From sequence record EF517003.1: a stretch of DNA of 532 bases; one strand, 5' to 3'. The notes below the pieces were generated by a model. It did not search any database, was not told the origin of the DNA, and worked only from the letters and a program-made list of their open reading frames with translations. Made by a program: the position numbers and the translations under genes. The DNA is from a phage. Below, in pieces: positions 1 through 532 of this stretch (within the stretch, counting starts at the first letter, position 1; each line of letters opens with the position of its first letter).

Positions 1-532
1 GCTTCGGTCGTATCCGTGACCTTGAAGCTAAACACTTCAAGAAAAACGTTGAGGAACAACTCAACAAGCGCGTAGGGCACGTCTACAAGAAAGCATTTAT
101 GCAAGTTGTCGAGACTGACATGCTCTCTAAGGGTCTACTCGGTGGCGAGGCGTGGTCTTCGTGGCATAAGGAAGACTCTATTCATGTAGGAGTACGCTGC
201 ATCGAGATGCTCATTGAGTCAACCGGAATGGTTAACTTACACCGCCAAAATGCTGGCGTAGTAGGTCAAGACTCTGAGACTATCGAACTTACATCTGAAT
301 ACGCTGAGGCTATCGCAACCCGTGCAGGTGCGCTGGCTGGCATCTCTCCGATGTTCCAACCTTGCGTAGTTCCTCCTAAGCCGTGGACTGGCATTATTGG
401 TGGTGGCTATTGGGCTAACGGTCGTCGTCCTCTGGCGCTGGTGCGTACTCACAGTAAAAAAGCACTGATGCGTTACGAAGACGTTTACATGCCTGAGGTG
501 TACAAAGCGATTAACATTGCGCAAAACACCGC
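1..532 (+). CDS. 1: T7-type single-subunit DNA-dependent RNA polymerase, internal fragment (about residues 151-326 of an ~883-aa protein); partial at both ends, first complete codon at nt 3, last complete codon ends at nt 530
   Basis: Frame 3 is open over the whole window and translates to FGRIRDLEAKHFKKNVEEQLNKRVGHVYKKAFMQVVETDMLSKGLLGGEAWSSWHKEDSIHVGVRCIEMLIESTGMVNLHRQNAGVVGQDSETIELTSEYAEAIATRAGALAGISPMFQPCVVPPKPWTGIIGGGYWANGRRPLALVRTHSKKALMRYEDVYMPEVYKAINIAQNT. I recognise this as the N-terminal-domain region of phage T7 RNA polymerase, with 171 of 176 residues identical by my recollection of the T7 protein. It is not in the supplied ORF track, presumably because the window holds neither a start nor a stop codon for it. 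Confidence 0.96.
6..167 (+). other. 1: Coding segment for the N-terminal refolding region (subdomain H, approx. residues 152-205) of T7 RNAP, which rearranges at the initiation-to-elongation transition
   Basis: Position within the recognised T7 RNAP alignment. Boundaries are approximate and come from established structural literature on T7 RNAP initiation versus elongation complexes. Confidence 0.55.
66..92 (+). other. 1: Coding segment for the protease-sensitive surface loop K172-R173 ... K179-K180 (NKRVGHVYKK), the classical nicking site of T7 RNAP and the usual split point for engineered split T7 RNAP
   Basis: Codons aag cgc at nt 66-71 and aag aaa at nt 87-92 encode K172-R173 and K179-K180 by alignment to T7 RNAP numbering. 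The functional assignment is established knowledge about T7 RNAP, not deduced from the sequence. Confidence 0.6.
240..287 (+). other. 1: Coding segment for the promoter-melting intercalating beta-hairpin of T7 RNAP (approx. residues 230-245; HRQNAGVVGQDSETIE, Val237 at nt 261-263)
   Basis: Translated motif HRQNAGVVGQDSETIE is identical to the T7 RNAP intercalating hairpin region as I recall it. Domain boundaries are approximate and taken from established structural knowledge of T7 RNAP, not derived from the sequence. Confidence 0.7.

Follow-up and report, generated by a model that had tools for sequence, protein, structure and literature searches.

Directional G:C to A:T mutation of phage T7 by nitrosoguanidine or hydroxylamine is already known, and whole genomes carrying the same signature as the fragment analyzed here are public. 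T7 lineages have been propagated in nitrosoguanidine, an agent that favours G:C to A:T changes (PMC5850294). According to a further source, this class of change dominates in T7 after treatment with either nitrosoguanidine or hydroxylamine, and about 4 viable mutations per T7 genome per infection are given for nitrosoguanidine (PMC6042481).

As references, the isolates K, K115, P and P82 (AY264775-AY264778) were used, with AY264774 as their wild type. We take these four genomes to be those of Bull et al. 2003 (J Mol Evol), i.e. mutagenised T7 lineages that presumably go back to the "known phylogeny" of T7 which Hillis et al. 1992 generated with nitrosoguanidine. Over the whole genome, isolate K (AY264775) differs from AY264774 by 417 substitutions (93% G:C to A:T; G>A to C>T 196:192; density 1.07%) and isolate P (AY264777) by 307 substitutions (93% G:C to A:T; 127:159; density 0.79%). 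A purine is located 5' of the mutated G in 80% of the cases in K and in 84% in P, compared with a genome baseline of 51%. Missense changes make up 55% (K) and 54% (P) of the coding changes. The average density in gene 1 is 1.0% in K and 0.8% in P, and 532-bp spans with at least 9 changes account for 15% of the spans in K (maximum 13) and 2% in P (maximum 10).

In this study, a fragment of T7 gene 1 was compared with these lineages, with wild-type T7 and with natural relatives of T7. The fragment had been noted for its one-sided pattern of differences from T7 in a preliminary description.

Nine transitions in a fragment of T7 gene 1

The window, i.e. the whole stretch of 532 bases analyzed here, is an internal piece of gene 1 of phage T7 coding for T7 RNA polymerase (window 1..532, plus strand; gene nt 449-980). 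The matching segment of the T7 genome is NC_001604 3619-4150, located inside the RNA polymerase CDS 3171-5822. In a megablast search against 50,697 phage records, more than 49 T7/DE3 records matched over 100% of the window at 98.3% identity, all of them at one place in gene 1 with an ungapped alignment and 523 of 532 bases identical. The mutagenised isolate P82 (AY264778) matches at 97.9%. The nearest natural phage is Salmonella phage PSP2-22 with 93.8% identity, and all matches above this value are T7 itself. In translation, the gene 1 frame starts at window base 3 and runs through the complete codons 151-326 (176 codons) with no stop codon. Wild-type T7 gene 1 (NC_001604 3171-5822) and the DE3 prophage copies are colinear with the window and have the same frame. 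Judged from this colinearity, the intact frame and a similarity to T7 far greater than to other phages, the fragment is an allele of T7 gene 1.

A base-by-base ungapped comparison with NC_001604 revealed exactly 9 mismatches, each of them a G:C to A:T transition, and together they lead to five amino acid replacements (Table 1). No indels, no transversions and no A:T to G:C changes were present across the 532 bases relative to NC_001604. On the coding strand, there are five G>A and four C>T changes; five are missense and four synonymous. In total, 9 of the 276 G/C positions of the window are changed. The resulting density of 1.7% exceeds what K and P show on average in gene 1.

Table 1. Substitutions in the window relative to wild-type T7 gene 1 (NC_001604)
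Position	Strand	Base change	Codon change	Effect	Context or remark
32	+	G>A	AAG>AAA	K160K, synonymous	AAGCA, purine 5' of G
114	+	G>A	GCT>ACT	A188T	AGGCT (GG)
235	+	G>A	AGC>AAC	S228N	TAGCT
290	+	C>T	CTC>CTT	L246L, synonymous	part of the cluster 290..294
291	+	G>A	GCA>ACA	A247T	part of the cluster 290..294
294	+	C>T	CCT>TCT	P248S	part of the cluster 290..294
290..294	+	C>T, G>A, C>T			all three within 5 bp, CTCGCACCT -> CTTACATCT
397	+	C>T	ACT>ATT	T282I	opposite strand: G with A 5' of it
458	+	G>A	AAG>AAA	K302K, synonymous	AAGAA
473	+	C>T	CGC>CGT	R307R, synonymous	opposite strand: G with A 5' of it

The preliminary description had named the five missense codon changes and, with less certainty, four synonymous differences from T7 (30-32, 288-290, 456-458 and 471-473), and all of them were recovered in the alignment with NC_001604. 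Its estimate of about 9 of 9 differences as G:C to A:T, none in the reverse direction and no transversions, turned out to be exact. The lack of strand specificity that it had pointed out agrees with the ratio of five G>A to four C>T on the coding strand. A mixture of transitions in both directions and transversions, named there as evidence against such a signature, was absent from the T7 alignment, which contains a single class only.

With regard to sequence context, a purine is located 5' of the mutated G at 7 of the 9 window sites (78%) compared with a baseline of 46% in the window (P=0.059; 9 sites only). Viewed from the mutated C, the 5' base at the 9 sites is G five times, T twice, A twice and never C. 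The two changes outside the purine-G context are those at 290 and 291, which are the two halves of one CpG (CG>TA).

Comparison with natural relatives of T7

The T7 reference state at the 9 sites is found in more than 49 independent T7/DE3 records and in 28 complete E. coli (DE3-type) genomes. PSP2-22, the nearest natural outgroup, carries the T7 base at 9/9 sites, and in an alignment with nine natural relatives the T7 base is the majority state at each of the sites. The window states can be regarded as derived, since PSP2-22 agrees with every wild-type T7 copy in having the alternative base. The comparison with natural T7-like phages suggested in the preliminary description has thus polarised the T7 base as ancestral and the window base as derived. 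An identical natural phage with the window state as the ancestral one, which had been named as contrary evidence, did not occur in the collections searched.

Several of the derived bases are found elsewhere in nature. Five of them (32, 235, 290, 291 and 473) occur in some more distant relative; for G/C sites in general, the baseline is 24% (P=0.04). The highest number of window bases in one relative is three (32, 235 and 473), found in phage Rambo, the most distant member of the panel. Among the nine natural relatives, A at site 32 and T at site 473 occur only in Rambo. Sites 114 and 458 are G in all nine, and site 397 is invariant across them. On the amino acid level, JB01, Bas103 and phiA1122 naturally have N228 (AAC), so position 228 tolerates change. 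T247 is natural in phiA1122, and residue 248 varies (P/H/Q) among natural relatives. Altogether, three of the five missense changes are located at residues variable in nature (P=0.04), and S228N and A247T lead to residues used by relatives. The bases shared with distant relatives look like recurrence at weakly constrained sites and not like recombination or natural ancestry.

Recombination with a natural relative was considered as the source of the five homoplastic bases and rejected: PSP2-22 has 0/9 of the window bases, no relative has more than three, and none of the relatives' own flanking differences is present in the window.

For natural divergence among T7-like phages (Teseptimavirus) in the same stretch, the 423 differences between T7 and the nine natural relatives were classified. 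Pooled over the relatives, 34% of them (range 22-54% by relative) are transitions from G/C in T7 to A/T, the remaining ones being A:T to G:C transitions and transversions. The probability of 9/9 G:C to A:T changes is about 6e-5 at the pooled value of 34%, and 0.004 at the value of the most biased single relative (54%). The ratios of missense to synonymous changes in the six closest natural relatives are 0:24, 1:26, 2:32, 3:36, 2:34 and 3:41, pooled 11:193 (5% missense, 11/204), compared with 5:4 in the window (Fisher P=1.3e-4). When all 272 possible G:C to A:T transitions in the frame are considered, 67% of those not creating a stop codon are missense; the 5/9 observed in the window are close to this expectation for unselected G:C to A:T mutation. 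Accordingly, the earlier remark that this ratio is high for a gene under purifying selection holds true, and so does the view that the window is unlike ordinary divergence between natural phages, since its changes run in one direction, are strand-symmetric and have a missense share far above that of natural relatives. The signature is real and far outside natural variation.

Spontaneous mutation in bacteria and phages is biased towards G:C to A:T. An environmental phage very near T7 that diverged under such a general bias would account for the direction of the changes, and the five window bases present in at least one more distant natural relative would suit it as well. However, no natural phage is nearer to the window than 93.8%, no relative carries more than 3/9 of the bases and PSP2-22 carries none, and the allele was not found in viral, metagenome and genome contig collections. 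Natural differences are G:C to A:T in 34% of the cases with the pooled ratio given above, as opposed to 100% and 5:4 in the window. Natural divergence is therefore extremely improbable as the origin of the fragment.

Laboratory evolution of T7 offers a further comparison, used as a control free of directional bias. Among the alleles queried in an allele-centred megablast search of the phage records, only 114A was found again, in MZ375279, the genome of the mutant T7 clone T7_240L, so that A188T recurs in an independent laboratory clone. T7_240L has none of the other window alleles, and A188T in this clone is best read as an isolated parallel change. Genome-wide, T7_240L has 47 substitutions of mixed types, only 9 of which (19%) are G:C to A:T; ordinary T7 laboratory evolution thus does not yield the pattern of the window.

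Candidate agents and alternative origins

The 9/9 changes are about 9000 times more likely (likelihood ratio ~9000) under the spectrum of K and P than under the natural spectrum. In our assessment, the source of the fragment is a T7 lineage of laboratory origin, or else a cloned gene 1, replicating in the presence of a G:C to A:T-specific chemical mutagen, most probably nitrosoguanidine, and we assign this reading a probability of roughly 65%. Which mutagen acted and how the lineage arose is what we infer here, and we do so from observed properties of the alignment, i.e. direction, strand symmetry, context, ratio of missense to synonymous changes, density and the agreement with K and P. The preliminary description had seen a resemblance to alkylating-agent or hydroxylamine mutagenesis, to deamination or damage, or to artificially introduced changes. 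This is supported by the present data, and the spectrum is quantitatively that of K and P.

SN1 agents such as N-methyl-N'-nitro-N-nitrosoguanidine methylate guanine at O6 with a preference for guanines preceded by a purine, and O6-methylguanine pairs with T at the next replication, by which G>A is fixed. In the window, guanines would have been alkylated at O6 by an SN1 agent such as nitrosoguanidine and subsequently mispaired with T, resulting in G>A, and a damaged G on the other strand would read as C>T on the coding strand. As damage can strike both strands, equal numbers of G>A and C>T would be expected in the coding sequence. Changes would have built up to a level of about 1-2 per 100 bp, with purifying selection doing little more than preserving a working version of the essential polymerase, and such accumulation under weak selection would lead to a near-neutral ratio of missense to synonymous changes. 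A mild excess of changes would be located where positions tolerate variation in nature. Since gene 1 is essential to T7, a viable lineage should avoid destructive changes; the intact frame is in line with this requirement, as is the finding that residues variable in nature account for three of the five missense changes.

An agent acting on cytosine in mutagenised laboratory T7 or in a cloned gene 1, for example hydroxylamine, would give a similar result. N4-hydroxycytosine pairs with A and thereby leads to G:C to A:T changes on both strands, so that 9/9 changes of this class with strand symmetry fit equally well, and the adjacent CpG changes at 290 and 291 lie outside the purine-G context. To our knowledge, hydroxylamine has no context bias of the 5'-purine type, whereas 7/9 mutated G in the window follow a purine against a baseline of 46%, as do 80-84% in K and P. 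Over the 9 sites, the likelihood ratio for this 5'-purine context is about 6 in favour of an SN1 alkylator such as nitrosoguanidine, as opposed to hydroxylamine or deaminases of the APOBEC type. T7 has been mutagenised with hydroxylamine, with up to 8 mutations per genome and G:C to A:T changes dominating (PMC6042481). On balance, we regard a cytosine-specific agent as unlikely, although it deserves some weight.

Enzymatic cytosine deamination, either by enzymes of the APOBEC, AID or CDA1 type with uracil repair blocked (for example from PACE mutagenesis plasmids or tools of the MutaT7 type), by a bacterial anti-phage deaminase, or associated with transcription, likewise yields C>T and G>A only. 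The motifs TC, CC and WRC are not enriched at the mutated sites (TC 2/9 compared with a baseline of 23.5%), and the cluster at 290..294 mixes strands, unlike processive deamination of a single strand. Promoter-specificity substitutions in T7 RNA polymerase obtained in PACE work include E222K, and none of those known to us is among the window changes. T7 RNA polymerase is a standard PACE substrate, and C>T changes are enhanced by the cda1 and ugi genes of the mutagenesis plasmid MP6 (PMC4633624). However, the plasmids MP1, MP4 and MP6 have broad spectra including A:T to G:C changes and transversions (PMC4633624), and 9/9 changes of a single class would be unlikely with them. For transcription-associated deamination (Beletskii et al. 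2000, cited in PMC8923235), an excess of C>T on the non-transcribed strand is expected; this excess is absent with four C>T as opposed to five G>A. Deamination by such enzymes appears decidedly unlikely.

The three transitions at 290..294 were considered separately. When 9 random G/C sites are drawn, three fall within a span of at most 4 with P=0.008, the test having been chosen after seeing the data. No triple of changes within 5 bp is present in the K or P genomes. Closely linked multiple hits have been described for nitrosoguanidine at replication forks. Linked multiple hits, co-selection of A247T and P248S, or chance are possible explanations for the cluster. A biological hypermutation may also be imagined, in which T7 survived a host or defence deaminase that acts on double-stranded or replicating phage DNA with an unusual GC/AC context, or in which a natural process made the CG>TA tandem and the 5-bp triple in one event; we give it a minimal probability.

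For the detection of the allele in other sources, several collections were searched. No identical sequence was found among the 50,697 phage records, and megablast searches of plasmids and complete E. coli genomes returned wild-type-like copies of at most 98.3% identity or nothing. A search of viral, metagenome and genome contigs with exact k-mers across the private alleles found none of them, except for five matches in metagenome-assembled genomes (MAGs) to the 20-mer at site 397, which according to BLAST are chance matches of 20-23 nt in unrelated MAGs. In allele-centred megablast searches, neither the allele of the 290/291/294 cluster nor 397T occurred in any phage record, and 458A together with 473T was absent from all records covered by the k-mer search of contigs and the allele-centred megablast of phages. 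The exact 176-aa translation was absent among about 15 billion proteins including assemblies of public sequencing runs; a protein homology search gave almost no matches in this collection, in which the T7 RNA polymerase family is apparently barely represented. A literature search found no paper in which these substitutions are combined, and A247T occurs by itself in engineering papers.

The absence of the allele from all collections searched, including the about 15 billion proteins, would also be expected for artificial changes made with no replication under a mutagen, i.e. a designed or synthetic variant or G:C to A:T edits made in silico, and 5/9 missense changes against 67% expected is what random edits of this kind would give. 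For uniform random edits, three observations are unexpected, each from a weak test: mutated G tend to follow a purine (P=0.059), 3/5 missense changes fall on tolerant residues (P=0.04), and three changes form the 5-bp triple (P=0.008). We consider artificial changes quite unlikely.

Finally, cytosine deamination of the template could have been fixed in a low-coverage consensus of contaminating T7 or DE3 DNA. Damage or a sequencing artefact of this type affects both strands, appears as C>T and G>A and leaves the ratio of missense to synonymous changes neutral, and the short length of the window (532 bases) would suit it. With 9 of 276 G/C positions changed, a conversion of the bisulfite type does not apply. 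Furthermore, damage predicts neither the purine-G context nor the enrichment at naturally tolerant residues, the tests behind both being weak, and the translation is absent from a collection that includes assemblies of public sequencing runs. An artefact is thus very unlikely.

Use of the fragment and relation to mutagenised T7 lineages

The biological weight of the fragment is small, and its value is a practical one in annotation. The window should be handled as an artificially mutagenised T7 derivative and not as a natural variant, and conclusions about T7-like RNA polymerases, be it on their natural diversity, selection or phylogeny, should not be drawn from it. Provided that the lineage was viable, the replacements A188T, S228N, A247T, P248S and T282I are probably tolerated by the polymerase.

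Membership of the fragment in K, K115, P or P82 was tested as well and rejected. Within the 532 bp of the window, five changes are found in K and three in P, all of them G:C to A:T, and the number of substitutions shared with the window is zero (0/5 of those of K and 0/3 of those of P).

In the design of the T7 known phylogeny, a sister taxon of K or P would reportedly be expected to have many of their changes. If so, the fragment would more probably come from an outgroup lineage or from a separate experiment than from a sister taxon of K or P.

Among the 50,697 phage records searched by megablast, no record matching the T7 populations from lethal mutagenesis was found. In these populations, obtained with nitrosoguanidine or hydroxylamine (Springman et al. 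2010; Bull et al. 2013, as summarised in PMC6042481), G:C to A:T changes are likewise dominant. The closest known systems include the isolates K, K115, P and P82. They differ from the window in the sites affected: K and P are unmutated at all 9 window sites, and the window is unmutated at the 8 sites changed in K and P; having no sites in common with them, the window represents an independent lineage or experiment. K and P resemble it in the gene and wild-type backbone, the G:C to A:T spectrum and its strand symmetry, as well as in the missense fraction (54-55% compared with 56%) and a similar density. The share of mutated G preceded by a purine (80-84% compared with 78%) points in the same direction, in a small sample of 9 window sites.

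Tandem change in the window and substitutions shared by K and P

Neighboring changes in the window turned a CpG into TpA, so that both strands of a single dinucleotide were affected. Among the nine changed sites, only these two were not preceded by a purine 5′ of the mutated G. The genomes of the mutagenised isolates K (AY264775) and P (AY264777) have 25 identical substitutions in common relative to their wild type AY264774, as counted over the whole genomes, which fits either a stem that the two lineages once had in common or hits that occurred in parallel. Each of the two genomes is also missing about 0.8 kb of early-region sequence near genes 0.6–0.7.

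Positions and records of the features
Feature	Record	Position or source
Tandem CG>TA	window	290-291
G>A (A188T), window position 114	MZ375279.1 (T7_240L)	3022-3056 (stretch with both 103 and 114)
A103G (window numbering)	MZ375279.1 (T7_240L)	
Exact CTGGCATTATTGGTGGTGGC	L018-L022 (MAG contigs)	Alphaproteobacteria, Lactobacillus, Thiobacillus, Parafilimonas, Treponema

Database matches

The 20-mer CTGGCATTATTGGTGGTGGC across T282I was matched exactly in five unrelated MAGs. Since BLAST gave identity limited to 20–23 nt, they were regarded as chance matches to a low-complexity word containing GGTGGTGG. A search of 5.8 billion proteins with the T7 RNA polymerase fragment yielded just one hit, a partial protein with 64% identity that carries the label Streptococcus danieliae. 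This database seems to contain hardly any members of the family, or to mask them, and its silence is therefore no evidence.

Mutant T7 clones carrying gene 1 changes

The substitution causing A188T was also found in 'Mutant T7 clone T7_240L', where it arose independently and is accompanied by A103G. This genome contains 47 substitutions of mixed type, 19% of them GC>AT, and it has several deletions. The site of A188T, in a GG context, may be a mutational hotspot, or the change may be mildly beneficial. Many clones of the 'mutant T7' series (the T7 records concerned are MZ375237–MZ375294 and OL964748) show 98.1% instead of 98.3% identity to the window (positions 1–532) and therefore have one extra non-wild-type difference within it in common. 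A literature search found no publication on this clone series. The common difference is possibly the A103G seen in T7_240L; in that case gene 1 would have changed in parallel in these clones, or they would have inherited the change.
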